Positions 4,681 to 61,944 of a stretch of 64,000 nt of DNA are shown here, in pieces; the stretch's first letter is position 1, and every line of letters starts with the position of its first letter. Under the pieces are notes generated by a model. It was not told the origin of the DNA. It ran no database searches and saw only the letters and a list, made by a program, of their open reading frames with translations. This DNA comes from Azolla caroliniana (lineage: Eukaryota; Plantae; Polypodiophyta). Where the stretch lies: positions 12,524,001 to 12,588,000 of the forward strand of contig JBHGNT010000014.1 of NCBI GenBank assembly GCA_043228905.1, written 5' to 3'. The position numbers were made by a program, and so were the translations under genes.

Positions 4681-4731
<51 letters not shown>

Positions 4732-7030
4732 TCTCTTCTGATGCATAGAATCACTCTTGATTCTTTACATGGTATCAGAGTGATTGGTAGCTTGATCCAA
4801 GTCCATCTACGTGTGTTGTGCCAAAGCCCACGTTCATGAAGAACCGATCGATCACTGTAGCAGCAACTTGCATAGTTTGCATCACAGAGAAGAAGAAGAA
4901 ATTCAACATGAATACTCACATGGGAAGTGCTCTTCCTACCGAGAAACTCAATAGCAACAACTTCGCATCTTGGGAGTACAAGATGCACCAATACCTTGTC
5001 GGTCAAGGCTATTGGAGCTATGTCAAGGGAGCTCAAGAAAAACAACCTAACCCGACACATGCTAATCACCCAGTCTAGGAACAAGCGGCGAGTTGCGTGC
5101 TGTATTGCCTTGCATCATGCGTTCATGATCACATGCTCTGCTACATCTGAGAGGCCAAAACGCCAAAAGAGGCGCATGGGAACCTCAAAAAGATATTCGT
5201 GGCCAACACAACCACACGAACGCTTCAACTTCGCCAAGAGTTGAACAATATAGTTATAGTGGGATATGTCAATCAACAACTACACCTTGATAATCAAGGA
5301 GCTGTGCGACTCTGTCGGGTCGATCAATGTTAACATTGATGATGATGAAATGGTGCAGATATGCCTTGGAGCCCTAGCACCTCAGTTCAACGCCATGTGG
5401 TCAGTTTTCCTCGCAAGGAAGAATCCTCCCTCCTTCTTCGACCTTCAATCAATGCTACTGGTCGAAGAAAATCACGTCCAAACAAGGCACATGCTCTATT
5501 CGAACTCGGATGGAGGAAGGGGACAAAGTCGTGGAAGAAGAGGCCGATTCGGCCAACTTAGGTCATCACAACCAAGAACACCCCCGCGAACAGAACTTTT
5601 ACTACTAGCAAAATGTTGCAACCACGTGAGGTGGAATGCCTAGAAGAAGGGGGAGCAATCATGCTGGACCACGTCATCAAAACAACTTCGTCTAGTGCAA
5701 ATACTGTAGCAAATTCGGCCATTACAAGGCATAGTGTCGGAAGAAGAAAAGTGAGTCGGCCTTCACAAGCCGACAACTTACTAACTACGCCTCAAACTTT
5801 GACCACGAAGATCGTGGCGGAATGCTCATGATGAGGCATAGAGCGAATTCGATGATGGCATTGTGCCCACCCAGCCATCACCTCCAATTCAGAAATTGTA
5901 TGGTTTGTCGATTCGGGTGCATTCAATCACATGACGTCTCACGAAGATTGGTTTTGAGAACTATGAAACCCCTAACGACTTAGTTATGTGGAAACAGGGG
6001 ATGACACAATTCAACCTACATCAAGAACGTCTTGTATGTTCCTACAATAATGAAGAATCTGGTCTTGGTCAGCCAGATTGTGGAACAAGGCATGCAAGGT
6101 CGGTTCACCGGCGGAGGATGCTTCATCGAAAAGGAAGGCCAATTTATTGCTCGTGGATGAAGAGAAGGTCAAATGTTCATCCTCGACACTCACAAAATGA
6201 AATCGACAATGTTTGCAAAGGGCCATAAAGCGGGCACCGATATAGAGCTATGTCACAAAAGAATTAAGCCACATTAATCTCCAAAAGCTCAAAGGAATGC
6301 AGTTGTAAGGAGTTGTCATCGAACTCCCGACCTTTATCGAGAAGGAGATTACAGGTGTATCCGAAGCCTGCAAATTCGATAAAGAAAATTGTCAACCGTT
6401 CCCAAAAGAGAGGAACGTGAACAAAGGAACCCTAGATGTAATACATTTGGATGTATGGGGACCAACCCAGACAACAACATTCGATGGTTGCTCATATTAT
6501 GTGATGTTCATCGACGACTTCTCCACGCACACCTAGATATTCCCTATGTAGCAGAAGAGTGAAGTGTTTTCACACTTCCAGAAATTCAAAAATGAAGTTG
6601 AAAAGGCAACCGATCGGCAATCATGATGACACTCATATTATGCCTCGAAAGAATTTGAACCCACGATCTTGTTATACACATATCAAATTCTCAACCATTG
6701 TAATAATATGCTTATATTTATGGTTGTTAGAATATATAATCTAATATGATAAGAATATTCTATCACTCTACATTCTAGAATGACCTAGAATATTCTAGAG
6801 TGTTCTATATACTAGAACCTTCTAGAATACTCTAGAAACCTTCTAGATTACTCTATACTCTAGAATGTCCTAGAAGATTCTATAGTGTTCTATATTAATA
6901 ACTCTAGAGGGACTTATAAATAGAGATCTATCAATCATCCCAAAACCAAATTGGTTCAATGCCATTCTATAGCTCTCTTTAGCCTACTCTTTGTAATCCT
7001 TCTTATAGTGCAATATAATACTTTCGTTTC

Positions 7031-7071
<41 letters not shown>

Positions 7072-15042: not shown

Positions 15043-17014
15043 GTCGGGTTCACCAAATATGTCGAGGTATTCCTCGCGGATGCGTGGAGTGAGGCGGGAC
15101 CTCGGGGGTCCTGTACCGAAGAGTAAGAGAGAGAGAGAAGGGACCCACTACGTGCGAGTGTAGATTCACAGGGACACGGCCCTTCGACGCAAAGACGCGA
15201 ATGGAACAGCGACACAGAAAGACACGAAAGTATGTATGTATTGACAAGACAAACAACAAGAACATGAAGACAACAAACACGAAGTCGGTTACAACCGAAC
15301 AGGCCGGCGAACAGATGCCGATACCTGCTCGTAAACGCACAGAGGAGAAAGAGTAGGTTGGAGGTGCTGCCAGAAGCACTCGGGCATTCCTCAGAGCAGC
15401 GCGAGCCTCCTGAAACCTGCACAGAAGGAAGCTATGGCGTTTGCAACCGGAAAGAGAGAGAGAGAGAAGCCTTCGCACGCAAACCGATAGCACTTCGTCC
15501 TCGACTCTCCGCGATCCCCTTACTCTCCTCGTCTCCCTCCTTTTTATAGGCAAGGAAGGAGCCGTTTCCCCTTTACTCCCTACCTACCGAATCTACCTAG
15601 GATCTCCTATGTACAACTTAAGGCGCACGTGCATGAAGAGTCGGTTTCTACGCTTCGGTACACCGATTCCGCTTGTGGACGGTTTTCTTCACGACACCGC
15701 ATCAGCCGGCATATCCGAATCGGTGAAACCGGCAAGTTGGGGTTTACCAGAGCGGAATCGGAGGCACATACTTGAGGTGCCTTTCAAGTACCAGAGTATC
15801 CATTTTATTGCATTCCAATGCTCCTTGCCAGGATTGCTCATAAACCGGCTCACCATTCCGACTGCGTATCCGATAACCGGTTGGGTACACACCATTGCGT
15901 ACATTAAGCTCCCGACCGTAAAGGCATATGGTATCTTCATCATATCCGCCTTCTCTGCCTTTGTCTTCGGGCTTTGCTTATCGGATAACTTGCAGTTTGC
16001 CGAAAGTGTCGATCCGACCGGTTTCGCATCTGACATGTTGAACTGCTGAAGCACCTTTGTCACATACTTCTCCTGTGACAGCCACAATTGCTTCTTCGAC
16101 CGGTCATGGATGATATGCATCCCCAGTATCTATCTTGCTGAACCCAAGTCTTTCATTGAGAAGGTCCGGTTCAAAGCCTTCTTCAGAGCCTTCTTCAGAG
16201 CCTTCTTCAGCATCCGTATCTTGACTTGGTCTCGTCCGACGATCAGCATGTCGTCCACGTACAGGAGGAGTATCAGGAAGTCTCCACCTTCGAACTTCTT
16301 CACAAATACGCAGTGATCGGCCTCTGTCTTGTGGTACCCTTGATCGGTCATGAAGGAGTCGAACTTTTGGTACCATTTCCGGGGAGCCTGCTTTAATCCA
16401 TATAGGCTCTTCTTCAACCGGCAAACCAGGTGCTCCTTCCCTTTCTTCACAAATCCTTTCGGTTGCTGCATGTAGATCTCCTCTTCAAGGTCACCGTGAA
16501 GGAACTCCATCTTCATGTCTAATTGTTCTACCTCGAGATCCATGCTTGCCTCTATGCTCAGTACCGTCCGGATGGAAGTCATCTTTACTACCGGGGCAAA
16601 TATCTCGTCGAAGTCCACTCCTTTCTTCTGTTGGAATCCCTTCACCACGATCCTAGCTTTGTATCTTGGGGGGATGCCGACATCTCCTGGTTTTAGCTTG
16701 TACACCCACTTGTTTCGGAGTGCCCTCTTTCCTTTCGGCAACTCCACCAATTCATACGTGTGGTTCTCATGCGGGGAATCCATCTCATCCTGCATGGCAC
16801 TCAACCACTTGTGGCTGTGGGTGTCTCTCTTAGCTTCTTCGAAGATTTCCGGCTCCCCCTCATCGGTTAGCAGTACATGCTCTGGATCCAGAAATCTCCG
16901 GGGGACCCTTCTTTCTCTGAGGAGATATCTGCGTCCTTGGTTTCCGGCAACCAGCTCCTCTGTTTGTTCTTCATCCAAATCCGATTCGGGATCTTAGCCG
17001 ATTCCGGTTTTCGC

Positions 17015-21400: not shown

Positions 21401-24204
21401 ATATGGACGAGTCGATGGTGAATGATGGCAGTGACAAGACTTTCTCCATACTAGTTCCAGAGACTTGGGCAGTTGCGTCTGAGAACCAATAGAAGACCCA
21501 AGAGAAGGAAGGTGGCAACAAGGGGGAGTTCAAATCTAATGTGAAAGATGACATCAAGACAAAGGTGCCAAAGGCAATTTACCAAAGACAAATGGATTCC
21601 TTCGCACATTTTCTAGAGACTTGGGCAGTTGTGGATCAAAGACAACGTGAGACCCAAGAGACAGAAGATGATGGCGGGGAAGAGAAGGTTCAAGCTGTTG
21701 CAAATAACAAAGTTGGGGAGTGGCCAACAAATACGCATGGATCTCTCCACACTCATTCCGGAGACTTGGGCATTAACCGATGTAAGACCCAAGAGAAGGA
21801 CAATGACGACGAAGAAGCAAGTGTTGAAGCTGATGTGTGGGAGGAAGAGGTCAAGAAAAGCATAGAGACAAAAGTTGATGTGTACAACAAAGAGTTTGAG
21901 CAAACTATGACAAGGGATGGCGATGGCCAAGCAAGCCATCAGGATCCGAAGGATGTGATCAAAATATCTAGCAAAGATACTAGTGTGAAGATTGTTGACT
22001 CGAATATGAGAATGTATCATGAAACTAGACAATGTGAGAAATATAGAGCATGGTTGCGTAAGGATCTCAAAGTAGGCATGCACTTGAAGGTACTACATGG
22101 GGTAGTCAATGTCATTATTCAGATAAAGGCTTGGGGAGAAAGACACGAAACAAAAATGTGCGATGGGTCAAAGTGCCTTGACTAAGGAGATGGTCGAAAC
22201 GAAAGTGGAACATGCATAAAGCGTAAACGGTTATGCTCGGAAGGAGAACAAGGGGCCATGACAACTTGTCATGGTAAAGCAAAGAATGAGCGAATGATAT
22301 GGTGGATTGGGTGGTGACAATGATTCGAATGAAAGGAATGGACATGCTAGAAATGGAGGAATCATACTAATCACCATAGCCGAAATCTCACACTCTCTTC
22401 TTGGCACGTACTGGAGGACGTGCGGTTTGGTGGGGGTGGATGTCGTGAAGATTTTTGGCAACGGTGTGAAAATTGTGTGCAATGAACGAAATTGAGAAGG
22501 TGCAATGTGCACGTGTGAAAGGGGAGAAGACAACGCATATGCTAGCATGGTGTAAATAAGATTGAAATGAGAATCGTAAAAGAAAAGCTAGATGTAAAGT
22601 TAAAACATGTGCACGTGTGATGTGCGCTCAATTGTAAATATAAAAATAAGACTAAAGCCTAGTAACATTTAAGTGCATAGATAAGGGTGGAAGCAAGGCT
22701 TGAACCTTGCACCTCCAAGATAAGAAACAAATTAACTTACCACTAAAGCCACTATTGAGTGCTGTAGAATTTGTATATTTTCTTTTCATATTCAGTATTT
22801 TGTAGGAAGCAAACATATAGAAACCGGGGGCATAAAACCATGGTTTTAGCCCGTGGGTTTAGCCCATGGTTTTTGCATGGAGAGACCTATAAAAGCCTAT
22901 AGTTGGGCTTGTGTAAGGGAGGCAAGTGATGTAAGTGAAAAAGAAACTTTTAATCAAAGATTCAAATTATCCTAATGGTGATGTATCTTGTCTCGTAAAA
23001 CTAAAGTCAAGGGTTCAATCTCTATCTGAATCTCTCTCTTCATCCATCTCGCTTAGGCTACTAAAAACATCGAATCCTTTTGGTCTAGGACCGCGGTGGT
23101 CCCGCTTCATTTCGCGAACACGCGAGGATTTCCTCGACATCTTAGTTGGTGAAGAGCGGCAGGGGAGGATGAAGATGGACGAGGATTATCTCATGCAAGC
23201 AATGTCGAAAATGTTGATGGAATTTTCAAGAGAAGGTAAAAGACAAGATGCAACCCAACAAGCCGTCGAAAGCGTGGTCGAGTGAGTTGGCTATTTCGAT
23301 GGGGGCACAGTCCAAAATTTTCTAAAGGCGTACAATGCCGAGATGTATTTGAGAGGTGTGAACGAAGCAATGAGGCTAGAGTACTTTTGTCTAGTGGTGG
23401 CCGAACCAATCTACAAAGAGATGAAAGATCTTCAAAAACTTCACGATTCATGGGTGTCCTTCGAGGAAACTTTACGAGAGGTATATGGTTATGAAGATCT
23501 ATAGGGACGAGGTCTATACGAGTTTGACCAATGGGTGTCATCAATGAAGACTCACCAGAGTGCTACGCATGCATTTGTTGAGTTTGAGTGTTGCTTCGCT
23601 CAACTCTCGGAGAGGGATCAAGATTGGTGGGGGCGAGTAAAGTCCTTATGTTCGTAAAGTCAGTTGATCGAAAGGAAAGGAAGGCACTTGGAATCCAACT
23701 TGAAGACGATGATGGAGCAAATGGCCTCACCGAGAATTGGGCCGAAGTTGAAAGAGTATGTCGATGACATGACAAGAGGAAGATGTGAATGTTGTCGACA
23801 TTGTCATGAACCATGAGGGAAGATCGAAGAGGAACGACATGCAACAATGCACCACCACTAAAGGAAGAGAGCTCGAAGTGGGAGATAGGTCGGTACTCGA
23901 CATAGAAGCCTTCGTAAAGGAGGCATATGAGAGTTTAAAGGTGCAAGTCAAGGCCAAAGAGAAGTTTAGAATGGAGCCAAAACCGAGGCAATTGGTGATC
24001 GACGAAGAGGAGACCTCCCGACAAATGCAGACTAATGATGCGGCCAATACGAAGGCCCAGGTTTGGTACGACAGTACCACGGGAGAAGGTGTGAAACAAG
24101 CCACCTTCTCGACTTACGGAGGAACGACGGTCAAGAGAAAGGCCGAAGACTCGAGAGAGGGAAATGCTGCTTTAAGAGTGGACGAGCATTTCTGAACATA
24201 TGCT

Positions 24205-25029: not shown

Positions 25030-28000
25030 AAATCCGGACGAAGGTCGACCAAGCGAGAAGTTGATTGGTTGAGACTTATCCAGATAGAAGTTGAGCCAAC
25101 CTAACCATAGGTTGAAGCAGACGAGCCACAACATGAGGAAAGGCAAGCATGAGACAAGAAAGGCCGATCGGAGGAAGTTTGATGACCAAGGAGATGGTCG
25201 GGATCAAGGCGGCACATGTATGATGCATGAAGGGTTATGCTCAGGAGGAGCAAAAGGGGCTATGCCAAGTGGTCATGACAATGCGAAGGGCGAGCGAATG
25301 ATATGGTTGATCGGGTGGCGACGATGGTTCAGGTGGAAGGAATGCATGTGCTTAAAATGGAGGACACCACCCGACGCAGGAGAGGCGTAAGAAAGAAAGA
25401 AATCAAAGGCCAACCACCTTTGAGTCCACCACATCACTCTTTTCTTCTTGGCACATGCCGAAGGATGTGCAGTTTGGTGGGGGTGGATGTCGTGATGTTG
25501 CGTGTCCATTGGGATAAATTGTGAAATAGTGTAGTTCCATGCACATTACACATACGATTATAAATATGAAAATTATCCTAGGGCCTAGTGGCATTCGAGT
25601 GCATATAGAGGGGTGCAAGCAAGATTTGAACCTTGCACCTCCGAGATAGAAGACATTTATCTTACCATCAGGGCAACTACCAAGTACTTTAGATGTTATG
25701 TAAATTTATTTTCATATTCAAAAGCCATAGGAAAACAACCGTACAAAACCGTGTGCACAAAACCATGTTCCAAGCCCATGGTTTTGTGCATGCCACAAGA
25801 AAAACCGTGTGCCCAAAAACCATGGGTCCAAGCCCATGGTTTTGTGCATGGATAGACCTATAAAAACCCTCATAAGGCTTGTGTAAAGGGGGGGCTCAAT
25901 ATGTGATATCATTATCATCACCATCAATATAATCTTCTTCTTAATATTCTTCTCGAAATCTATCTTCTTCTCAAGTGTGACATTAGTTTCCTCGATTCCT
26001 ACATACACATCGTCATCTTTTTGACAATTTCGCGAACGTCCTCCCTGGTCTGAGACCCCGGTGGTCCCGCTCAAGCGAAGCATGCACGCACGCGCATCTT
26101 CGCGACAAAGTCGAGGGCCTTTATCAGATGTTGAGAAGCAACGACGTCGAGTGCACCACCTATGTCTATATTGTGGCAGTCCAGGATATATAGCCGTGAA
26201 TTGTCCACATAAACCTAGACGTCAAGTCTACCAAGTAAGTGCACATGACAACCCTACTTCAAGTTCCATTGTTACTTCTAATAACATAAGTAAGCCTAAT
26301 AGTCCATGCCATGAGAATAGATTCGATGTCTTGAGACAATTAGAGGATGTGTTAAACGAAGTCCGACCAAAATAGGAGCCATTTAGTTGGACTATCCTAG
26401 CTATGTAGAGTTAGTTCCTAGTCGTGGTTCCATTTCATCAAATCAATTGAGTAGAGTTTTTTCTACACAAGTCGAGTTTTCCACATCTACATGTCATTGA
26501 GTCCTAGCCTCTGCCCTTCTAGATTCTAGAGCCAACTCTTGTTTCATGGATCGTGAATTTACATTATCACAAAACGTCCTCTTGAATAAGCTCCCGAACC
26601 CAGTAGCGGTAGTAGTCATTGATGGCCGTCCCATAGCATCAGGTGATATAGTCGAGGAGTCCGAGCCAATTTGTATAGTTCTTGGCGATTTGGCAAGCAT
26701 TATCTCTTTCAACATTATTCACAGTCCGGAACACCCAATAGTTCTAGGTCTCCTTTGGTTTAAGCTCCATAACTCCAAGATTGATTGGATGAAAAGAACA
26801 ATTGAGGACACCTTGGTTTCAACAAGTGAGGAAGGGGGGAATGAGGACATGTTCGTATTCGCAATAGTAGCAACTCCATCATCCACCTTACATGAAGTGG
26901 ACATTAAACTACCAGAGATATACAAACAATTCTCAAACATCTTTGATAAGGTGAAGGCCAATACATTGCCGGAGCATAGGCCATACGACTTCCCTATTGA
27001 CTTACAACCAAGGAAAGAACCTCCATGGGGCCCAATTTATAATCTCTGCCCTGTAGAGCTAGAGACTTTGTGAGAATATATCGACGAGAATCTGACAATC
27101 GGATTCATTCGACATTCTAGATCCCCTACTAGTGCACCTATCTTCTTTGTTAAGAAAAAGGACGGGTCTCTTCTGTTGGTTGTGGATTATCGAGGGTTAA
27201 ACAAAGTGACTATTCGGAATAGATATGCTATACCGTTAATCTTGAATCTTTTGGAACGTCTCTGTGGAGAAAAATATTTCACGAAGTTGGACCTTCGCGG
27301 TGCATATAATCTAGTTCGGATTCGTTCGGGGGATGAATGGAAGACTACTTTTCGCACTTGCTATGGATATTTTGAGTATACTGTAATGCTATTTGGTCTC
27401 ACGAATGCACCTGTAGTTTTCTAGCATATAGCAAATGATATTTTTCGAGATTTTCTCGATATCTTCACTATAGTTTACCTAGATGACATTTTGATCTACT
27501 CGAAGACCCAAGAGGAGCATGATGAACATGTTCATCAGGTATTACATCAACTACGAGAATATGGTCTCTACGCAAAATTAGAAAAGTGTAGTTTCGACCA
27601 GAATCAAGTGGAATATTTGGGGTATGTTGTATCATCCGATGGTATTTGCTATGAACCCCATGAAGGTTCAAGCAATTTTAGAGTGGCAAACGCCCCTTTT
27701 AGTGCATGATGAGCAAATTTTTCTTGGGTTTGCAAATTTTTATCGGGAATTTATTAACAATTATTCCAAGGTCGTGCTTCCGCTCACGCAACGAACATAC
27801 AAAATCAACCATTCATATGGAGTTCAGATGCAGCCGAGGCATTTGAAAGCTTAAAACGAGCTTTTACAACGACACCTATTTTAGCACATGTCAACCCAAC
27901 AAAACGCTTCATTCTTGAAGTTGATGCATTTGATTTTGCATTAGGGAGTGTCTTATCGCAGACTCGAGATGATGGACAACTACATCCTGTCGCCTTTCAT

Positions 28001-29748: not shown

Positions 29749-29798
<50 letters not shown>

Positions 29799-46900: not shown

Positions 46901-47289
46901 ACAAATCAAAAGGCTTAGCCAAATTGATAAAAGCTTGTGTTATAAGTGGGAGGTCAAGAGTTTGAGTCTTGTTTGGATTATAGAAGAGCAAGCGAACAAA
47001 TTGATGGACATTATCAGGCACTAGAGAAAAACTAGAGCAGGCAAGTGGGAAAAAAATGTGAGATGCATGCTAAATAAAAAAAACATTACTCACAATTTTT
47101 ATTTGTGCGAGAGCCTCGAATCCAATAAAAGGGTGAGGAGATCTCATTGTTTAGCGGTATTAGTAGTAAGATTTTCACTATTATAGAGCCTGTTTGTAAA
47201 AAATGGTTAATAAAAAGACTGCTTAGTAGTTCCAATATATATTCTCACAACAACTCATTTTAAATGCCCTTACATAGAAAACACATGAT

Positions 47290-47959: not shown

Positions 47960-48900
47960 TTTATTTGTTTAAAATGTGTTTCTATGTATGGATGCAGTTT
48001 GTTTGTTTGCATAGCCGACCACTATTATCACTTGTGCCCCAACGCCACGTCTCACATTGCAATGCATGTGAGCTAAGTCGCATGGAAGCAATGGTTCGAA
48101 TGGCAGATAACGGTACGGGCTCTAACATGTATTGATGTGTACGGTTTCCTTGTTCTGCAAAGAATATGGTCTTTTAGCTAGGTGCAACATGTGTAGTATA
48201 ATGTGTGAAGCGTGAGCCTCCACATTTGTCCCATGTCTTGATACATTGGTGTTGCAAAAAGGCATCATTTACAGAGGAATCTAGTGATGCATCATGAAGC
48301 AAGTGTCTCGCATCCCATCTACCAAATCATTTTTCTATATCTTGCATCAAACCGGAACACAAAATTTTGCTTTTATGCGTCTTTTGGATCTTTTTGCTTG
48401 CTTTCCATGCAATTCTAAGAAGTCAATGTGAGGGACTTTTTTGAACCTTAAGCATGTATTCAACAACCCTTTCCATGGCCATGATCTCAATGGGAAGCGA
48501 TCCCGTCTAACGGAGGAGGTGTAGGGCCTTTGTTTCTTAACTTGTAGAAACTTTGTAAGAAAATGTTTTTGGACATTTTCAAACTCTTTCCGCATAGATT
48601 TAGGGATACTACCCCCCCATACTTCCACCCCATAGAGAAGAACCAGTGTCACCAAAGTGTCGAAAAGATATTTCTTTTGGACCCAACACTTAATATCTCC
48701 AACATTGCATGTGTTCTCAAATGCATAATATGCTTGCTTACCTGCCTCTAAGCGGCGTGTAGCACATTCATTCCATCTATGATTTGAAGGAACTTCAAGG
48801 TCAAGATATTTCAAGCTTTTCACACATTTAAGTAGCTCATTATTGTACATAATGCATGGTTTATCTCTTTTTTGGCTCTTCACAATCATAATCTTTGTTT

Positions 48901-48901
<1 letters not shown>
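47960..48901 (-). pseudogene. RTE-type LINE reverse-transcriptase C-terminal fragment
   Basis: ORF 48347-48889: VKSLKYLDL...RRLEAGKQAY...LLYGVEVW. Confidence 0.8.
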
Positions 48902-48930
<29 letters not shown>

Positions 48931-48932
<2 letters not shown>

Positions 48933-49290
48933 CTAGATGGATGTAGCTCAGTTGGTAAGGTTGCCCAATAAAAACTTGAAGGTCATGGGTTTAATGCCTA
49001 CATTCCAGAGTGGCATCTCGTGAATTAAGATATATAAAGTATTTTAATAAAGAGGTGAGAAAATTGGGTTTCGAACCCAAGACATAGTGCTTGTAGTATA
49101 ACAACTTACCACTAGAGTAAGCTAATTACAATAAAAAAGAGAGAGAGAGAGAGCCCAGATGGATGTAGCTCAATTGGTAAGGTTGCTCAATGGAGACCAG
49201 GAGGTCATGCTTTCAACCCCTACATTTCACAGTGGCATCTAGTTAATTAAAAGGGATATGTATTAAGTATCTAATAGAGAGGTGACCACT
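48931..49290. other. tRNA-derived SINE-like units in (GA)n
   Basis: A box TAGCTCAGTTGG at 48944 and TAGCTCAATTGG at 49166. An opposite-strand unit at 49062-49120 has the T-arm TTGGG-TTCGAAA-CCCAA. Confidence 0.6.
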
Positions 49291-49299
49291 AGGGTAAGG

Positions 49300-50390
49300 T
49301 ACTTAGGAGAGGAGAGGAGAGGAGACAAAGGAACATAACTACCTACTAACTATGTGTCATAGAAGTTAAGTTTTATGACACATTAGTTATGTTACATAGT
49401 GGTAGTTGTGTGTCCACACACTTGTGTTCTTAGGGTGTGTTCACACCATAGGGAAGTTGAGTTTCATTCTTGAAGCTCAACTCCCGGTCATTGGATAGTC
49501 GACTTTGGTCTTGCTGGTATCTAGGTCGGTATGGATAGTTGGCTCTCACTCTAGCTCATTGTACTTCCAGCGCACTCCCCCTCAAGATCACGTGAATTGC
49601 CGAAGCTTGTCAGCTCCTAAGGAATTTGTGAAGATGTCATCTGTTTGGAGATTTGTGATGATATGCTAAAGCTTGACATCTCCGACTAGGACACGTTCTC
49701 GAATGAAGTGATAGTGCACTTCGATGTGCTTAGTTTGAGCATGAAAAACCAGGTTGCAAGCAAGGTGCATGTTGTTGAGGTTGTCGAAGTGTAGCAGGAT
49801 TGGATTGGTAATGGAGACGTTCAGATCCTTTAGTATCCTCTTAAGCCAAACGGCTTCACATGAAGCAACAACCGCACCTCTGTATTCGGCCTTTGTGCCG
49901 GACAGTGCAATTGTCGGCTGCTTTTTGCTGCTCCATGATATGGCTCCGTGGCCAAGGTCCAAGGGAGAAGACGAATCCAGAAGCTGATCATCGGTCGACT
50001 TTGTTGCCCGTCCAGTCGGCATTTGTGTACCATTCGAGGCAAATCGGCACTACCAATTTGTATAGGATATCGTAATTCATAGTACCCCTTACATACCTTA
50101 GCACTTGCTTGACACAATCCAGATGAATGTCCCGAGGTGTTTGTATGAATTGGCTAAGGAGGCTGATCGGATAGCTGAGATTGGGTTGTGTAATGGTAAG
50201 AAAGATCAAGCTTCCGACCGGTTGCCGATAGCGAGTTAGCTCACACTCTTCTGTGTCGGAGTTTGCAGCTACCTTCAGGTTTCGATCGAGAGGGGTTACC
50301 AGAGATCTGCACTTAGTCACCGAGCTTATACAATAAGTTCAAAATGTAGTGCCGTTGGGAGGTCATGATGCCGTTTGGGGCCCGATTTTG
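49300..50390 (-). pseudogene. Copia RT/RNase H fragment plus partial 3' LTR
   Basis: ORFs 49988-50320 and 49666-50022 (SWSSKKQPTIALS, HAQTKHIEVHYHF). 49340-49470 resembles the reverse complement of LTR 4420-4545. Confidence 0.85.
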
Positions 50391-52852: not shown

Positions 52853-55289
52853 TTGGTTGTCTGTTTGATTCTATTGCCGCCATCGACAACTCTCGTTTGT
52901 GTATCCTGAAGATCTTAGCTGATCTCGACAGGCAACCTACAACAAGATTGTGTAGGCAAAGAGAAACATGACGAAGTTTACACTCTATTGTTCTTGGTCA
53001 CTCTTGGTTATGTGATCGAAGCTGCTCGGAGTGAGACTTCTATCTTGACTAGGCCAAATCGTTGCTTCACTCGGCTAGGCGGAAAATTGAATAGGTCATC
53101 TGACCCTTTTCTCCTACTCGTTGTAGTAACCTGAAGCAAACACGATTCCAAGGGCAACCCCAATCTGTGTTTCATTCGACTGAATGACATTCGGGAGGAC
53201 CAGTCGGATCCGTCCCTCTCATCACTGCAGTTAACCAAAACAAGATTGGCCTAGAAAATTGCATATAATCCGTGTTGAGAAATTTCGGAAAAATCAAATC
53301 ATCAAATCAGGGTTCAACTCGACTAAGTCAACTGACAGTAGTCACTTTGAACAAGATTCATTGATATTCGTAATCAACACAACTTGTGTCCAACTTCGGC
53401 TAGTGTTACCGGCCGGCATAGGAGTCCAAAGTGTGAAACGATGGAGTTATTTAATTATTAAGGAATGGTTGTAAGTAAGCTATTAGTGTGAACGGACGGA
53501 CCAGAATCGGTATGCCGTTTCGGATACGGACCGATCCCGAACAGGTGCGGATGGCACCGTTTTGTACTACAAACCGGAAACCTATTTAAAGGCTCGGATA
53601 CAATGTAATGAGCAACGGATAATTAATAAAGCTTAGTGTTTTTGTATCTCTGTGTTAATTGCCGTTCTGCATTCATTGTTATATCTTACGCGTGTGATTA
53701 TTAAGGACGATCTTGCTAAGTAACCTAATTAAGTCGGATTAATCGTTGAGCCTAATCCTCTTGCCGTAACACCCCTTTGGTGAAGTGTCTTCCGTAGACA
53801 CCTTGTGTTAGGCCATTGTCTGGCCCTAAGAGTTAACACAGTTTTTGGCGACCACGACGGGATTGCAAAAATTACAAAGCATATATCAAAGGCAATTGAC
53901 GCATTACAAGGAGCAGGCGGAAGACAACGTCAAAATCATCAAGCAATTGAAGGAGGAACGACAAGCTGCGGAGATCAAATCGCAGATGGGAACGGGCCGG
54001 ATTCAGTGCATCCTCTAGGCATGGCTGAATCAGACAAAAGGCTTGATTGATGAAAGCTCCGTAAGATGGTGGACAAAGTGGACACAAAATATGGCGGAAC
54101 TCCAATTGCTACGGGCAGACGTGGCAAACCGGCGGAAGGAAGGAGATGATTGTTACACGTTGACTTCTGAGGACTTCACCGCCATACGGGACGAGCTGAC
54201 TGAAGACTTCCAAGTCCTGGCGGATGAACAACTAGTGCAGGTCCAGCAACTCGTAGTTCAGCTAGACGATGATAGGCTGGACGCTCAAATCCAGTTAGAG
54301 AGCTACGAGCGGTCCCGGGTTCGGGAAGAAAAAGCACGGGAAGCGGCAACGGTTAACCTTAGTGATGAGGAATCGTCGCCGGCTGAGGACCAGGCCGGAA
54401 CCAGTGAACCGGAGACCACTACGACGGAGGGAGCAACGACGGAAACGCCGGTGTCAGAGCAACAAACGGAGGAGGAGCTGCAACAGCCACCAACGGTGTC
54501 GTAGTGTAAGTTGCACACTATGTGGAAATTATATTTTTGTCCCTCCGGATAGAGAATGGAGTGCTCGGTGAGAACCGGAAGAAAACGGCATACCGGCAAG
54601 GAGGAAAAACGGCATGCCGGCAAGGAGGAAAACGGCATACCGGCAAGGAGGAAAACGGCAAGGAGGAAAACGGCATACCGGCAAGGAAGAGCCGGATAAA
54701 GAGACATAAATGCAAAAAGAAAGGAAATACTCACTACTGCGCAGGGCGTGATTCGAACTCTGCACCTTCACGTTGACAAACCCCAACCTTACCATTACAT
54801 TAAATTATCTTAAGTGTTTTAAATATAGATTTAATATGTATAAGACCTTTATTTATGCATACCTTTATTAAAAGGTAAATCGTGTATTTTTTTAATATAT
54901 GAAAAAGACGAGACACTAAAAATAACTCATGCACATCTAGCGTGCATGAGCCCTATACTTAGGAAATAAAAAAGCATCACATGCACATTTAGTGGACATG
55001 AACACTTTTTGTAAAAATAAAAAAGCATGAAGCCATGCTTAGCTCTTCCTTCCTTATATAAGGAGGAGAGAAATATGTAAAGGGTTGTTGATTATTTGGA
55101 TTAAGAATTAATCAATACAAAATTTATTCGTGGGATTCACGATTTATACATCTACTTCTCTCTTAACACCCTAAGTACCAATTAATATAGTATACTCGTG
55201 TGATTCACGAGTTTCTTATCTTTCTCTTTGCTATTTACTCATAATTAATCTCTATCTCACGAACTTCTTTCTCCTAGTCCAAGACCTCT

Positions 55290-57416
55290 GTGGTTCCCAC
55301 CCGACTCACGCAACGATCCGGAGCCGAAAGGCACGACACAGTTGGTGAACCCGACGTGAAGACGGGTGGCAAGGAGATGGAGGCTCAACAAGCTAACAAT
55401 ATGATGGCGATGTTCGAACGGATGCTTCAAGAACAACGCACGATGTCGGAGATTTCGGCATCAGTAGAGCGGCTCGTGCAACGCAACGGGCAATTTAATG
55501 GTAAGGATGTGTCGCGATATTTGCAGGACTACAAGGCGGAGATGCTCCGGTGCCGGGCTTCGGAAGGACTGCAAGTGACATCCTTTAACCGGGTGGCGAC
55601 CGACGGGCTTCAAGGGAGTATCCACGGGTTGCAACAACAAAATCCGACGTGGGAAGCATTCGAAGAGGCGTTAAAGACCACGTTTGCCATTGAGGACTCC
55701 TCCAAGGCAACGCGGAGGGGATTCGAGGATTGGGTGGAAACGTCAGGTAAGGGGCTGAAGGTCCTCGAAGTGTTTTCGACATTCGAAAGTCGGTTCGGGA
55801 GGTTGTCCGCGAGAGATCAAACTATTCTTGCACCGGACAAAGTCATCATGTTTTTGCGAGCTGTGGACGTCCGGGACCGGAAAGATCTCGGAGTGCTTCT
55901 TGAGGACACGACCACCGAAAGCGGCCTCACCGAAACATGGGAAAGCGTGCGGGATATCGTCGCGCGGTACACGAAGAGGGGGCAATGGCTTGCCAACGAA
56001 GAAAAGAGGGTTTCGGAACCGATTCCGAAACCGAGAACGGGACTGGAAGACCATCAACCGAGGGCTCGGGAGATTACGGCCGAGAAGGGAGTCGACGCGT
56101 CTACGGTGGAGCAGCTGCTGAAGGAGATGGAGAATCTAAAGATCGCGATGGTGAAGAAGTCGGATGACCGTCCCACAAGCTCCAAATATACGGATCGACG
56201 GTGCATATGGTGCGATAGCGCCGAACACGATCGGAGGGATTGCGACGACCATAAGGAGGCGCTACGACGGGATCTCATCTACTACGAGGGAAACCGGATT
56301 CATTCGATGGACTCTCGGAAGCCACTCCGACCGAACTTCCGGAAAGGCGGCATGAAGAAGGTGCTCGAGGAGGAGTTAGCGGCAAGAAGCAACTATGCGA
56401 CAACCGCGGGAATATGTGTCGGGGAGTCATCGGGAGCGAAGGCGTCTTTCTGGCCGGAGGTGCTAGGAAACACCGAGAAAACCGACTCCAACGATATCCG
56501 AAACACCGCGGAAGGCGTCCGGGAAGCTACGGGATGGGAGTGCCCTGTCGACAAGAATAGCATATACGCCCTGTGTCAATTACATGAGGTGTATGTGGAC
56601 GAGAAACGACGGCGCACGGAGGATGCGGCCGGACCATCAAAGATACCGGAAAGCTGGAACTCCGGAGGTAAGGGAAAAGAAAAGGCGACTCCGGCATTCA
56701 AGCTCGCCTCGGACATAGAACAACAAACCGACTTGAAAAGAGTGTTCGAGGAAAGAATCTTGGATAGCCGGGTAGATTTTTCGCTGCGGGAACTACTCGG
56801 AATAGCGAAGAAGGAGTTTCACGATCTTCTCGTGGATCTCGTGAAAAGGAAGAGACAAAGTACGGAGGAAAATGCTCCAAGGGTGAATGCAAATACCGTT
56901 TCAATGAACGACACCGAAGTGGAAGGCGAAATTCCGAACTCCCACTATACAAGGCCACACTGGGCACGTGCGACTACGGAGACTCCGGTCCGAATCGGCA
57001 ACATCAAAGAACCCGTGCTAGCATTGATTGATCACGGATCGGAGATCAACTTGATGTCCAAGGAGTTCTACCGAAAGGGGAAGTGGCCTATAAACACCAA
57101 CCATGGATGGAAGATTCGGGCAGCCACGAAAACGACAGAAGACCTATTTGCGGCTTGTCCGGATGTGACGGTAAAGATCGGGGATGTCGAAATTGACCAA
57201 AACTTCTTTGTGCAGGATGAGGTTTCACATTCTGTCATCCTCGGCCAACCCTTTATCACGGCTTCACGGATGGAGACGAAGGTGCTCGATAGTGGTGCGG
57301 CTTTTGCGCGAATTCGGAGCCAAAACGGAGGGAAATCCGTCCAATTCCTAACGGTGCCGGCAAATCACGAAAGGAACAAGAGGGAACTCTTGTCCCAAGT
57401 GAGAATGGATTTTTAA
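55290..57416 (+). CDS. gag: Gag-protease polyprotein (true start probably ATG at 55378)
   Basis: 708-aa ORF; CIWCDSAEHDRRDC knuckle; LIDHGSEIN aspartic protease motif followed by VILGQPF. Confidence 0.92.
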   Translation: MVPTRLTQRSGAERHDTVGEPDVKTGGKEMEAQQANNMMAMFERMLQEQRTMSEISASVERLVQRNGQFNGKDVSRYLQDYKAEMLRCRASEGLQVTSFNRVATDGLQGSIHGLQQQNPTWEAFEEALKTTFAIEDSSKATRRGFEDWVETSGKGLKVLEVFSTFESRFGRLSARDQTILAPDKVIMFLRAVDVRDRKDLGVLLEDTTTESGLTETWESVRDIVARYTKRGQWLANEEKRVSEPIPKPRTGLEDHQPRAREITAEKGVDASTVEQLLKEMENLKIAMVKKSDDRPTSSKYTDRRCIWCDSAEHDRRDCDDHKEALRRDLIYYEGNRIHSMDSRKPLRPNFRKGGMKKVLEEELAARSNYATTAGICVGESSGAKASFWPEVLGNTEKTDSNDIRNTAEGVREATGWECPVDKNSIYALCQLHEVYVDEKRRRTEDAAGPSKIPESWNSGGKGKEKATPAFKLASDIEQQTDLKRVFEERILDSRVDFSLRELLGIAKKEFHDLLVDLVKRKRQSTEENAPRVNANTVSMNDTEVEGEIPNSHYTRPHWARATTETPVRIGNIKEPVLALIDHGSEINLMSKEFYRKGKWPINTNHGWKIRAATKTTEDLFAACPDVTVKIGDVEIDQNFFVQDEVSHSVILGQPFITASRMETKVLDSGAAFARIRSQNGGKSVQFLTVPANHERNKRELLSQVRMDF

Positions 57417-60400
57417 AGCGGACTGTTGCGGAGTGGGGAAGTGATAGTCCGAGAAGCCCTGATACCCCACATAGGAAGAAAACTCTCGGAGCAAAACAAG
57501 TACGAATCGGGCCGGATGGGGCATCTACGTACACGGCCGTAACCGGAGGAATGAAGAAACAATACCGACAAGTGGAGGATAAGTTACGGTCGGCATCAAT
57601 AATAAAAGAAGACGAAGAAATCGTGGGAGTGATCGAGGAAGTGTTCTATGGGAATACACTACAACGGCTTGAAGAGCTTGCGGAAGATAAAAGCCAAGGG
57701 AACCGGGTAGTCCCGGTGGAATCGGTCGAGATGTACGAGATCGTTGCGAAAATGGGGCCGGATGCGCTCCGCAAAGAAGAAGCAATGGTAAGTACGAAAT
57801 ACAAGACCGTGGAGAAGAAGGTGAAACCGGCCGCGGGACCACTACCCGCCGATAGCGAACAAAAGAAGAAAGAAGTCTCGGGAGATCCGACACTTCGGAA
57901 GTCCGTGGATATCGGACATGCCTTCACAGATGAGACCCGGAAGAAACTTCGGATCGGTGGAGGTGGGTTCCTCTTACAAGAAGAAGAAAAACGGTTTCGA
58001 GAGATGTTGGAGCAACACGGCAAAGCATTCGCGTTCACATCGAGGGAGATCGGATGCATTGATCCAAAGATAGTGGAGCCGATGGTGATTTTCACGATTG
58101 ATCATGTACCGTGGAACCTGAAGCCGATTCCGGTGCCACGGGCGCATATTCCGAAAGTCATCGACTTGCTCAAGGAGAAGGTGGCGATGGGGATTCTAGA
58201 GCCATCAAGTGCTCCGTACTCAAATCGATGGTTTACGGTTCCAAAGAAGAATGGGTCACTCCGATTCATCCAAGACTTGCAACCGGTGAACAAGGTCACG
58301 ATCCGGAACTCGGGAGTCGGTCCGATAGTGGACGAATTCGCGGAAGCTTTTGCCGGGCGTGCGATATACTCCATCGGGGACCTATACTCCGGGTATGACC
58401 AATTCCAACTAGCCGTGGAGAGCCGAGACATCACTACCATGCGGACACCGATAGGACTAGTTCGAATGTGCACACTACCACAAGGAGCGACAAACTCGGT
58501 TGCACATATGATGAACGCGATGAACAAGGTGCTTCGAGATTGCATCCCGGAGATAACGATGCCGTTTCTAGATGACATTCCGATGAAAGGATGCGCGGTG
58601 GAAGAAAAAGATGAGACTATGGATGATCGGGGATGCCGAAAGTTCGTGGTCGACCATATTCATGATTGCGAGAAAGTGTTGCGAAAGCTAGAAGATGTGC
58701 ACCTAACACTTTCCGGGGAGAAATCGGCATTCGGGCAAGAAGAAATATTGGTGGTTGGACATCTATGTGGACCCTACGGCCGAAGACCGTCACCAACAAA
58801 GATCGATGCGATTCAAGCTATGAAGGAAGTATGTGAGTCAACGTCGGAAGTCCGAAGGTTTCTGGGTGCGTGTGCATTCTATCACATATGGATTCCGCAC
58901 TATGCACATATAGCGGACCCGCTCTATCACTTGTTGCGGAAAGGTAAGAAATTCGAGTGGAAACCGGAACACACTAAAGCCATGAGGAAGCTCAAGAAGA
59001 CACTATGGAGGGCGGAATCACTTAAGAAGCCAAGCTACGAGCGACCAATCATAGTAACGGTTGATACAAGTCCAACCGGTATCGGGTGGGTCATCAATCA
59101 AGCCGACTCGGATGGTTCGCGGTATCCGATCCGATTTGGAGCAAAGGTCCTCAACGAAAGGCAGCGCGGATATGCACAAGTCAAAAGAGAATTGTGGGGA
59201 GTCGTGTCAGCGATAAAATCGGATCGGGATTATTTGATCGGAGCTGAAGTGGTGATCGAGACGGATTGTCTTCCGATACTCGGGATGATGCGGTGTTGTA
59301 CGATACCGGATGTGGCTATGCTAAGGTGGATTGCATATGTCAAGTCACTTAATCCGGAGGTTCGACACATCTCGGGGAAGGACAACGCGGTAGCGGACAT
59401 GTTATCGAGGGCGCGGTTTGAAGACGACATAACCGAATCAGATAATGAAGAAGTTTCCGAAGACTACTTCACGTCAGAACACATATGCCGAGTGAACGTG
59501 ATCCGAGAATTCCGGGAAGAAGAATACGAGGGGGAAACCTTGATGATCGGGAAGATGCTACAAGAGGTCGAGGATTCAACCAATGATAAAGAAAGGAGAG
59601 CCGAGATCCGAAGGAAGAAGAGGCAAGTCCAAAAGTTCTTCTTGGAAAACGGTTTAATATGGAGGACGCCGAAAAGACCGGATGGGATACCACTTCGAGT
59701 AGTCGGGATGAAAGAACAACGAAACCGGATAATGTCTGAGTTCCACGAATCCGATTGGGCTGGACATCGAGGAACATGGGCAACTTTTGTGAAAATCAAG
59801 CAAAGATATTGGTGGAAGAACATGTATAAAGATGTCGCGGAGTTCACAGAAAGCTGCGAGAAATGTCAAGTCTACTCCGGGGTCCGACACCGAGATGAGC
59901 TGCATCCGACATTCTCACCGACAATCAACTTCAAGTGGATGGTCGACATTGTAGCTATGCCGACCGGGATTGGACAAAAGAAATACTTGGTGTTAGCTCG
60001 AGAAGATCTCACAAACCAAGTTGAAGGTCGAGCGCTTCGGAGGAAAACGTGTGCCGCGGTGTGCCAATTTCTTTTGGAAGAAGTGTTTTGTAGGTACGGC
60101 TGCGTAGGACAAGTGATTGCGGACCGGGGAGAACTCGACTCGGACAAAGCTAGGGGATTCTTCGCCAAACATGGAGTTCGGTTAACGTTGACAACGGCCT
60201 ACAATCCGGAGGCCAACGGGAAGATCGAACGAGGACATAGTCTGATCGTGAAAGCACTTGCGAAGGCATGCGACGGAAGGGTGAAGGATTGGCCACAAAT
60301 GCTTCCGTATGCACTATGGGCGGATCGGACGACGCATAGCTCCGTGACCGGTTACATGCCGGCAGAACTCATGACCGGACAAGCACCGGTAATGCCAACG

Positions 60401-61018
60401 GAAACCGCAATCGCGACATGGACAATACTACCGTGGAAGGAAGAGATGAGCCGGGAAGAACTACTAGCGGTCCGGATACGACAACTGGAGGGAAGACCGA
60501 AAGATGTAGCGGAAGCGTCACGCCGACAACAAGAAGCACGGTTCCGGAACAAAAGCCGGTTCGACACAAAGCACCGACTACGACCGAGGAGGATTGAAGA
60601 AGGAGATTGGGTGATCGTCTATGATAGTAGCTTGGACCATCAACATACAACGATGCGGAAATTCGCGAAAAGGTGGTTCGGGCCGTACGAGGTTCGGAAG
60701 GTCTTCGACAACGGGACGTACCGACTGTCCGAGTTGGATGGAACAATACTACGAGTGCCTATAGCCGGGAAGCGGGTAAAGATTTTCAAGAAGCGGACCG
60801 ACGACAAACCTTATGTGATCCAAGTCGAGGCCGACAACGAGGAGCAATCGGACAAAGACCACAATGATGCGGGAAGCGAAGAAAGTGGATTACAACTCAT
60901 AGTCGACATAAGGGGAGAATCGGAGGAAGCTTCGGATGAAGACGGATACGAAGAATCAAGAACTTCGGCACATACCGGAGGATGTGCGGGTTTGGAGGGG
61001 GCGAGTGTCGTAGTGTAA
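57410..61018 (+). CDS. pol: Pol (RT-RNase H-integrase), probably expressed by -1 frameshift
   Basis: 1155-aa ORF from 57551, with the frame open back to 57410. PFLDD, RNase H, HHCC, integrase core and GPY motifs; no chromodomain. Confidence 0.95.
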   Translation, partial: FLKRTVAEWGSDSPRSPDTPHRKKTLGAKQVRIGPDGASTYTAVTGGMKKQYRQVEDKLRSASIIKEDEEIVGVIEEVFYGNTLQRLEELAEDKSQGNRVVPVESVEMYEIVAKMGPDALRKEEAMVSTKYKTVEKKVKPAAGPLPADSEQKKKEVSGDPTLRKSVDIGHAFTDETRKKLRIGGGGFLLQEEEKRFREMLEQHGKAFAFTSREIGCIDPKIVEPMVIFTIDHVPWNLKPIPVPRAHIPKVIDLLKEKVAMGILEPSSAPYSNRWFTVPKKNGSLRFIQDLQPVNKVTIRNSGVGPIVDEFAEAFAGRAIYSIGDLYSGYDQFQLAVESRDITTMRTPIGLVRMCTLPQGATNSVAHMMNAMNKVLRDCIPEITMPFLDDIPMKGCAVEEKDETMDDRGCRKFVVDHIHDCEKVLRKLEDVHLTLSGEKSAFGQEEILVVGHLCGPYGRRPSPTKIDAIQAMKEVCESTSEVRRFLGACAFYHIWIPHYAHIADPLYHLLRKGKKFEWKPEHTKAMRKLKKTLWRAESLKKPSYERPIIVTVDTSPTGIGWVINQADSDGSRYPIRFGAKVLNERQRGYAQVKRELWGVVSAIKSDRDYLIGAEVVIETDCLPILGMMRCCTIPDVAMLRWIAYVKSLNPEVRHISGKDNAVADMLSRARFEDDITESDNEEVSEDYFTSEHICRVNVIREFREEEYEGETLMIGKMLQEVEDSTNDKERRAEIRRKKRQVQKFFLENGLIWRTPKRPDGIPLRVVGMKEQRNRIMSEFHESDWAGHRGTWATFVKIKQRYWWKNMYKDVAEFTESCEKCQVYSGVRHRDELHPTFSPTINFKWMVDIVAMPTGIGQKKYLVLAREDLTNQVEGRALRRKTCAAVCQFLLEEVFCRYGCVGQVIADRGELDSDKARGFFAKHGVRLTLTTAYNPEANGKIERGHSLIVKALAKACDGRVKDWPQMLPYALWADRTTHSSVTGYMPAELMTGQAPVMPTETAIATWTILPWKEEMSREELLAVRIRQLEGRPKDVAEASRRQQEARFRNKSRFDTKHRLRPRRIEEGDWVIVYDSSLDHQHTTMRKFAKRWFGPYEVRKVFDNGTYRLSELDGTILRVPIAGKRVKIFKKRTDDKPYVIQVEADNEEQSDKDHNDAGSEESGLQLIVDIRGESEEASDEDGYEESRTSAHTGGCAGLEGASVVV

Positions 61019-61944
61019 GTTGCACACTATGTGGAAATTATATTTTTGTCCCTCCGGATAGAGAATGGAGTGCTCGGTGAGAACCGGAAGAAAACGGCAT
61101 ACCGGCAAGGAGGAAAAACGGCATGCCGGCAAGGAGGAAAACGGCATACCGGCAAGGAGGAAAACGGCATACCGGCAAGGAAGAGCCGGATAAAGAGACA
61201 TAAATGCAAAAAGAAAGGAAATACTCACTACTGCGCAGGGCGTGATTCGAACTCTGCACCTTCACGTTGACAAACCCCAACCTTACCATTACATTAAATT
61301 ATCTTAAGTGTTTTAAATATAGATTTAATATGTATAAGACCTTTATTTATGCATACCTTTATTAAAAGGTAAATCGTGTATTTTTTTAATATATGAAAAA
61401 GACGAGACACTAAAAATAACTCATGCACATCTAGCGTGCATGAGCCCTATACTTAGGAAATAAAAAAGCATCACATGCACATTTAGTGGACATGAACACT
61501 TTTTGTAAAAATAAAAAAGCATGAAGCCATGCTTAGCTCTTCCTTCCTTATATAAGGAGGAGAGAAATATGTAAAGGGTTGTTGATTATTTGGATTAAGA
61601 ATTAATCAATACAAAATTTATTCGTGGGATTCACGATTTATACATCTACTTCTCTCTTAACACCCTAAGTACCAATTAATATAGTATACTCGTGTGATTC
61701 ACGAGTTTCTTATCTTTCTCTTTGCTATTTACTCATAATTAATCTCTATCTCACGAACTTCTTTCTCCTAGTCCAAGACCTCTGTGGTTCCCACCCGACT
61801 CACGCAACGATCCGGAGCCGAAAGGCACGACAACGGACTAGTCGCAGCAGCCATCAACGGAGCAACAACAGCAGCAACAACAACCACAACAACCAATTCC
61901 AGATGAACCATTGGAGACTCTCGAACAAAGCATTCTGGATAACA

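Follow-up and report, generated by a model that had tools for sequence, protein, structure and literature searches.

Among LTR elements, Pol III promoters have been described in TRIMs, which are non-autonomous and presumably use them to make template RNA. The closest described system is that of the Helenus TRIMs (TRIMp3), non-autonomous elements of 311-1263 bp with one known plant family, in Selaginella (Kojima, 2024; PMC10886601; this and all further statements on published systems refer to the accessible part of each paper). Their autonomous partners are argued to need Pol II and to be unlikely sharers of a long LTR stretch, and many Repbase LTRs hold part of a tRNA that was left undescribed (PMC10886601). 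Modules similar to those reported here may thus be deposited but unremarked. Cassandra and Ajax TRIMs are also non-autonomous, but their promoters are 5S-derived (boxes A, IE and C), whereas the modules described here are tRNA-type; in Cassandra the Pol III promoter drives the element's own transcript, unlike the modules here (PMC10886601).

The working analogy is provided by the cen1 tDNA and the B-box (IR) boundaries of fission yeast, where an assembled Pol III complex blocks heterochromatin in any orientation; the cen1 barrier, however, is a genuine tRNA gene of the host, whereas here we deal with a mobile, cloverleaf-less mimic and a putative barrier (PMC2040200). BLV likewise carries Pol III-type promoters in a mobile element, there for a defined miRNA cluster, unlike the modules here (PMC12498455).

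The stretch of DNA analyzed here (64 kb, hereafter the window) consists of nested LTR retrotransposons, several of which carry a tRNA-gene-like A/B-box module in the LTR. As in Helenus, this tRNA-like sequence is conserved around boxes A and B and is unlikely to yield a working tRNA; unlike the short Helenus elements with their non-coding interior, the modules lie in autonomous 7-kb gag-pol elements with a TATA box (PMC10886601). The Helenus boxes are proposed to make template RNA, whereas 12 of the 15 perfect modules found here (among the best 80 of 256 loci) are antisense and a T5 run follows the first module of the window, M1, after 31 nt. In addition, LTRs here often hold two to three modules, which can bracket the TATA box, and this is not so in the accessible Helenus description (PMC10886601). 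Judged from the sequences, this is a real, selected, multi-family feature, namely the capture of a predicted Pol III promoter in the LTRs of coding elements. A literature search, with subscription journals mostly outside its reach and including the accessible part of a preprint (10.64898/2026.03.01.708851), found no account of autonomous LTR elements of plants in which A/B modules are under selection, lie antisense or bracket the promoter.

Retrotransposons of the window

The best-preserved context for the module is E1, for which the following features were assigned, together with the LTR of a second element (E2) that serves as negative control:

54497-61832, + strand: element E1, Phygy-like Ty3/gypsy, intact, 7.3 kb, gag and pol frames open
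54497..55338, + strand: 5' LTR of E1, 842 bp, 98% identity to the 3' LTR
55055..55062, + strand: TATA box, predicted Pol II promoter of the E1 5' LTR, 253 bp from the M1 A box
55278..57416, + strand: gag ORF of E1, stop to stop, DUF4100
55343..55359, + strand: primer-binding site (PBS) of E1, just 3' of the 5' LTR
57293..61018, + strand: pol ORF of E1, open, with RT, RNase H and integrase
61006..61832, + strand: 3' LTR of E1, 827 bp, preceded by a polypurine tract
15060..15696, - strand: 5' LTR of E2, negative control, G+C-rich, with a short U3 and without module

E1 is flanked by a 4-bp target-site duplication (ACGG at 54493-54496 and 61833-61836). Its PBS, which we take to be of the tRNA-Trp type, is intact, and a degenerate Trp-type PBS follows the LTR at 22441. 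Among named sequences, the E1 RT-RNase H (RT-RH) has its nearest relatives in Riccia, a liverwort, and Adiantum, a fern, with up to ~69-72% identity, which makes a seed-free land plant the likely host. No relatives were found among the viral contigs searched. Sequencing runs of three organisms contain the E1 LTR at high contig depth, and those of a fourth contain part of it. E2 is a relative with 77% RT-RH identity and a GCGG target duplication. A Pfam search of the E1 pol gave no chromodomain match, and no extra RNase H was found. With their NCGN targets (ACGG, GCGG), compact gag-pol and no chromodomain match, these elements resemble, by description, the Phygy clade, for which the accessible description mentions no LTR module (Neumann et al., 2019; PMC6317226).

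The LTRs of E1, 22441 and 25488 have the same termini and represent one Phygy-like lineage; the 2.3-kb piece between the latter two yielded no Pfam match in the one ORF searched. Where the preliminary description of this DNA had attributed the modules to several Gypsy families, three of its four LTRs thus belong to a single lineage, and only the fourth, which bears module M4, comes from another.

In the case of this fourth LTR, a Copia integrase is split at 6618/29802 by a Tcn1-like element with the duplication TCGGC/TCGGA, and its 5' LTR can therefore be placed at ~6619-7079. A position of M4 outside the Tcn1-like LTR was considered and rejected, since the split integrase and the duplication put it inside the 5' LTR, as had been proposed. 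The 3' LTR (29471-29801) lacks its first ~105 nt, so that the counterpart of M4 is deleted there; the 3' end of pol is deleted as well, and two ORF pieces of the element gave no Pfam match. The LTR is followed by a 12-mer with an 11-of-12 match at 6948 in the LTR itself, a self-priming complementarity in place of a tRNA PBS. Likewise, Tcn1 chromoviruses have no tRNA PBS and are self-priming (PMC6317226). An apparent Tcn1/Ty3-like insertion 21 nt upstream of M4 was rejected as well, being a deletion junction in the twin LTR.

A/B-box modules and their placement

Within these and other LTRs of the window the following modules and flanking signals were located:

54750..54802, - strand: module M1 in the E1 5' LTR, A box 54792-54802, B box 54750-54758
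61244..61296, - strand: identical copy of M1 in the E1 3' LTR, from the consensus scan
54810..54850, - strand: A/T-rich stretch upstream of M1, putative (predicted) TFIIIB site
54714..54718, - strand: T5 run 31 nt after the M1 B box, candidate Pol III terminator
22697..22750, - strand: module M2 in the U3 of LTR 22441-23139, gap 34, 138 bp upstream of the TATA box (22888)
22968..23021, + strand: second module of LTR 22441, sense, 80 bp downstream of the TATA box, 28.5 bits, absent from the preliminary description
25623..25675, - strand: module M3 in the U3 of LTR 25488-26107, gap 33, 184 bp upstream of the TATA box (25859)
6653..6705, - strand: module M4 in the 5' LTR of the Tcn1-like element, weak by profile (14 bits)
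48945 (+), 49068-49119 (-) and 49167 (+): three tRNA-like modules in a Copia-type LTR fragment (48945..49220)

M1 has zero mismatches to TRRYNNARYGG and GWTCRANNC, with starts 44 nt apart and a gap of 33 nt, and carries the conserved AGGT (tRNA positions 44-47) at 54764-54767 of the minus strand. The antisense boxes originally noticed at this site and in the other E1 LTR are thus a perfect consensus match. Three perfect A+B pairs occur in the window, in both E1 LTRs and at 5343 in a Copia coding region; 30 block shuffles averaged 0.1 and never exceeded 2. The A-B gap of 33-34 nt equals tRNA-gene spacing, as in a type 2 Pol III promoter. In tRNA numbering, the distance from G19 to G53 is 33 nt in a tRNA with a short variable loop. 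The yeast A-B spacing ranges from 31 to 93, with 32 as the commonest value (PMC11724288).

M2 and M3 have two A-box mismatches apiece, and by bare consensus they do not rise above chance (25 pairs in the window vs 16 +/- 4 expected). A profile that excludes their own family nevertheless scores them at 35 and 40 bits, respectively, against a shuffle maximum of 16 over 1.97 million positions, which bears out their designation as similar modules. The 14 bits of M4 do not exceed that maximum, and M4 is weak. The modules at 48945 and 49167 are weak by profile, and a further profile match lies at 46916. ARAGORN predicted no tRNA gene in the window or in any of the 59 loci scanned, and no Rfam tRNA match was obtained for the window, M1 alone or the L040 LTR.

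A SINE origin of the individual copies finds no counterpart in these data: there is no body or tail conservation, and the module is present in both LTRs and in contigs of four organisms. No TSD-like repeat was found around the four window modules, with a longest shared flank word of 6 nt. The copy-specific SINE insertion that had been named as the finding that would overturn the initial proposal is thus not what is seen.

The modules lie mostly antisense in U3. From A box to TATA box the distances are 253 (M1), 138 (M2), 184 (M3) and ~210 bp (M4), in agreement with the initial estimate of roughly 130-250 bp, and in all 10 LTR types that bear an antisense module and for which a TATA box was called, the nearest antisense A box lies 138-253 bp upstream of it. 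The orientation had been given as antisense throughout; this holds for most modules, but sense copies occur as well. Those of L014, LTR 22441, L037, L040 and L072 lie 73-128 bp after the TATA box, so that divergent module pairs bracket it in L014, L040, L072 and LTR 22441. L040 and L072 have two antisense copies each, and L036 combines two antisense copies and one sense copy over its two LTR pieces. In L008-L011 and L027, sense modules lie upstream of the TATA box and do not fit a strictly outward-facing design.

Spread and conservation among related elements

Relatives were collected by a pol-alignment scan, from which the best 80 of 256 loci were used; 49 of these 80 provided LTR sequence (76 segments, 53,181 nt, not dereplicated and some with flank). 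Scanning gaps of 20-60 nt gave the 15 perfect A+B pairs in this LTR sequence, with a gap of 33 in 12 and of 34 in three, a count which, like the B-box-first tally below, includes a module of L080 that sits in a neighboring Copia-type LTR. Not a single pair turned up in the 159,613 nt of pol, and shuffled sequences averaged 0.025.

After dereplication, 16 of the 31 element types among these best 80 loci have the module and 15 do not; 31 of 45 tree rows were kept, with L029, L074, L078 and near-duplicates dropped. L029 and L074 had figured as carriers in a first tree and were rejected, as the modules at these two loci belong to nested LTRs from a different family. Carriers reach down to 71% RT-RH identity with E1. 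On a quick RT-RH tree, gains and losses add up to at least 6 changes, three of them forced by well-supported branches, and close relatives can differ: L044 and L045 have the module while L047 has a tandem repeat in its place, and in L037 the module has decayed by a ~10-nt spacer deletion. Copia-type LTRs (49068 in the window; L080) and nested LTRs of further families are also hosts. Mosaic U3 regions recur in distant families; exchange of U3 segments together with local duplication would likely have spread the module between families.

Conservation is limited to tRNA positions 8-61 in a set of 25 modules (L029 still included, as in the profile used above). Mean pairwise identity in this set is 0.63 for the A box, 0.86 for positions 44-47 and 0.83 for the B box, compared to 0.35 for the spacer (positions 22-43), 0.35 for the 5' flank and 0.29 for positions 62-72. 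The box values are partly circular, as modules were chosen by their boxes, whereas spacing and positions 44-47 are free of this circularity. Outside the search pattern the kept positions are T20 (84%), A21 (80%), A44 (88%), G45 (92%), G46 (100%), T47 (92%) and G52 (80%). Starting instead from the B box, 48 distinct LTR sites comprise 26 with AGGT and a placed A box, six with AGGT only, three with the A box only and 13 with neither; of the 32 AGGT-bearing B boxes, 26 are accompanied by an A box exactly 33-34 nt away. In pol, 0 of 23 sites have AGGT or an A box, and both features together occur 0 times in 20 shuffles.

The same pattern returns within families. Among E1-family variants (at 2% or more, in contigs of four runs), 0 of 17 core positions vary vs 23 of 65 other positions (Fisher p = 0.002), or vs 11 of 36 non-core positions within the module (p = 0.008), p-values that, like all others given here, are optimistic since modules share descent and were motif-picked. 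Core positions, the B-box CpG included, are spared, and A-box changes hit degenerate positions with one exception (position 10, one run). No contig joint skips the module, and one low-depth joint removes part of it. E1, L064 and L002 have nearly identical pol, a rewritten spacer and retained boxes. The check suggested at the outset, a comparison of box conservation with that of the remaining U3, thus comes out in favor of the boxes, by pairwise identity as well as by within-family variants.

The tRNA fold has not been kept along with the boxes. Pairing in the acceptor, D, anticodon and canonical T stems is not above permuted partners (p = 0.41-0.87, 25 modules); the proposed loss of the acceptor and anticodon stems therefore stands, whereas a T-arm that is often kept does not, the canonical T-stem being no better than chance and a one-base-shifted hairpin being kept in one subtype only. 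Boxes, spacing and the conservation of positions 44-47 do support the notion of a tRNA-derived module, read here as a selected Pol III promoter unit.

With regard to the flanks, upstream of antisense modules A+T amounts to 0.78-0.87 in the three 10-nt bins that span 11-40 nt, and whichever the orientation, A is enriched in the 40 nt before the module and T in the 20-40 nt downstream. In a 30-module set that still includes L029 and L074, T4 runs occur inside one module vs 5.5 expected (P = 0.009), and within 50 nt downstream in 15 (11 of 19 antisense, 4 of 11 sense); six have no T4 within 120 nt, and terminators are thus irregular. Upstream A/T and downstream oligo-T flanks of Pol III genes are weaker in non-angiosperms (PMC13437025). 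For M1, an RNA of ~100 nt ended by the T5 run is predicted.

Possible role of the modules and competing explanations

Because the boxes, their spacing and positions 44-47 are kept while the spacer is randomized and no stem covaries, the selected unit is likely a DNA-level Pol III promoter, neither a tRNA nor a copy-specific SINE. In yeast, TFIIIC touches the base at position 47 through a winged-helix residue, and binding or transcription is affected when +44 to +47 are changed; the A box brings little gain in TFIIIC affinity but is needed to place TFIIIB (PMC11724288); B-box readout is conserved across eukaryotes (PMC11811891). The kept positions of the module appear to match what TFIIIC reads, and this evolutionary footprint (boxes, 44-47, spacing) agrees with the contacts in the accessible account of the yeast TFIIIC structure. 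Factor binding is very probably what selection acts on. Retention of the A box and its spacing probably serves TFIIIB and Pol III, and the expected product would be a short RNA (~100 nt) directed mostly away from the Pol II promoter.

LTR modules would assemble the predicted TFIIIC, TFIIIB and Pol III beside the element's Pol II promoter, and the assembled complex would act as a chromatin barrier or as a seed of open chromatin, so that the element stays transcribable; the antisense orientation would leave the start of the genomic transcript free of Pol III. A chromatin role is favored because the 7-kb genomic RNA cannot be a Pol III product and the majority of modules face outward from the element. 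The barrier itself we infer from the fission-yeast cen1 tDNA, which requires the A box, TATA and Pol III and is orientation-independent (PMC2040200). That the benefit to the element is protection from silencing has, on this analogy, about even chances of being correct, and we regard the whole, a Pol III-promoter mimic that assembles factors as chromatin barrier or seed, as the best explanation, one that could equally turn out right or wrong. The broader picture, in which autonomous LTR elements of several lineages recruited a stripped tRNA-gene mimic, placed one to three modules around their Pol II promoter and use them as a portable anti-silencing barrier, is put forward tentatively. Against the barrier reading, half of the relatives have no module and some copies are decayed. 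Methylation silences clustered tDNAs of Arabidopsis although their signals are intact (PMC7544208), and the module may accordingly be off in most copies.

Should the modules be barriers, they would help to explain how some LTR elements stay active in heterochromatin-rich plant genomes, tDNA-type boundaries would work in plants, and every insertion or solo LTR would seed TFIIIC sites. The modules would then act in cis against silencing and offer, with a thousand copies, a natural test of plant tDNA barriers. CTCF is, to our knowledge, absent from plants. The mouse B2 SINE is another mobile Pol III-type promoter with boundary effects, which are CTCF-linked (PMC8136502).

The coding elements studied here appear to keep modules for some purpose other than template RNA, reversed and around the TATA box, and this purpose could instead reside in the product: a short (~100 nt), mostly antisense U3 Pol III RNA with a 3' hairpin, tuning silencing as a decoy or small-RNA source, or tuning replication. 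We consider this rather unlikely. Depletion of T4 inside the modules and T-runs after them would suit such an RNA, and BLV miRNAs do arise from type 2 Pol III promoters (PMC12498455). Folding is also stronger than in shuffles on the B-box side (mean z -1.1, with 6 of 26 below -2), but not on the A-box side (mean z -0.1). In a hand-picked set of six sequences from one subtype, both partners have changed in 4 of the 14 pairs, a count reached by 7 of 500 shuffles, with a structure derived from, and scored on, these same sequences; this B-box hairpin possibly reflects RNA-level selection in that subtype. Yet no cloverleaf stem covaries in the 25 modules, the spacer is randomized, and the hairpin varies in register by subtype and has no strand preference (p = 0.10). 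In E1 the hairpin is broken and the predicted whole M1 RNA folds worse than shuffles (z = +1.9), while its boxes are still perfect. A TFIIIC-only (ETC-like) site, at which B-box binding alone matters and the element is tethered or insulated without Pol III, accounts for the conservation peaks at positions 44-47 and the B box and for the six of 48 LTR B boxes that have AGGT without a placed A box, and fission yeast has B-box-only boundaries (PMC2040200). It leaves unexplained why 26 of 32 AGGT B boxes retain an A box at 33-34 nt, given the small affinity gain (PMC11724288), and such an A box kept at a fixed distance favors full TFIIIB/Pol III assembly; we hold the TFIIIC-only site to be improbable.

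Hardly more than a slim chance is given to a neutral tRNA or SINE-head relic that was captured in U3 and then propagated passively as elements amplified and exchanged U3 segments. The patchy distribution, decayed copies (L037; M4 at 14 bits), mosaic U3 regions and the tRNA-like pieces in many Repbase LTRs (PMC10886601) speak for it, but in the spacer identity is no higher than in the flank, whereas boxes, positions 44-47 and spacing persist down to 71% RT-RH identity, within-family variants spare the core including the B-box CpG, and the window modules have no TSD-like flank repeat; pairwise identities, within-family variants and the B-box-first scan thus largely refute it. Finally, a bound Pol III complex might dampen the adjacent Pol II promoter, as in the tRNA position effect by which budding-yeast tDNAs repress nearby Pol II reporters (cited in PMC2040200), or serve as an integration landing pad. 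Inspection showed an insertion just upstream of the module in 0 of 5 module-bearing Gypsy LTRs of the window, the apparent one near M4 being the deletion junction mentioned above, and both variants are considered very improbable.

The promoter-mimic reading can be approached through sister families with and without the module, which provide a ready comparison. In a comparison of 15 vs 16 LTR types, module presence is not significantly related to low U3 G+C or CpG (p = 0.51 and 0.09, respectively), and for whole-LTR G+C the same comparison gives p = 0.046.

Modular organization of U3

U3 is modular, as seen in the intact Phygy-like Ty3/gypsy element E1 (54497-61832) and at the related loci L002 and L064, L045, and L036, L014, L029 and L074. 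Different LTRs are found on elements whose pol is 95-99% identical, and two distinct U3 types occur on one contig. A CATGCA-rich block between the tRNA-like module (A box plus B box) and the TATA box is common to distant families and resembles RY elements.

Modules in Copia-type sequences and outside mapped LTRs

A fragment of a Copia-type LTR at 48900-49480 carries three tRNA-like modules, two of which are convergent and were apparently duplicated as a unit. Its plus-strand modules are reminiscent of tRNA-Ala. The related LTR at 4409-4771 lacks such modules. Two further sequences fall within no mapped LTR.

Module-like sequences outside mapped LTRs
46916-46969, plus strand: module-like sequence, profile score 31 bits
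37829-37889, plus strand: looser module-like sequence in the leader of a Copia element; gap 41 nt

Nested and tandem elements

The region 6619-29801 is a 23-kb nest of elements, in which the host, a self-priming chromovirus-like element, itself interrupts a Copia integrase. It has received a Copia element, the E1-related element E2, a Phygy-like LTR (17015-18465) and a two-LTR Phygy-like piece. The host's 3' LTR is missing its U3, which was deleted together with the polypurine tract at a microhomology of 4 nt. The two-LTR piece (21380-26107), with a degenerate primer site, has the tandem order interior-LTR-interior-LTR, its LTRs being only about 73% identical; possibly one non-autonomous element inserted beside another. 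In seven related loci (L022, L027, L031, L033, L035, L063 and L072) a second primer site directly follows the 3' LTR, which suggests either frequent tandem (three-LTR) arrangements in the Phygy-like lineage or assembly collapse.

Other repeat arrays

Units of 240 bp, 87-98% identical, are repeated in tandem at 35502-36761; they are related to a Copia LTR that occurs at 7572-8142 and again at 20813-21369. Short palindromic repeats with numerous hairpins form another array at 31980-33120, which is also found in L013 and L064.
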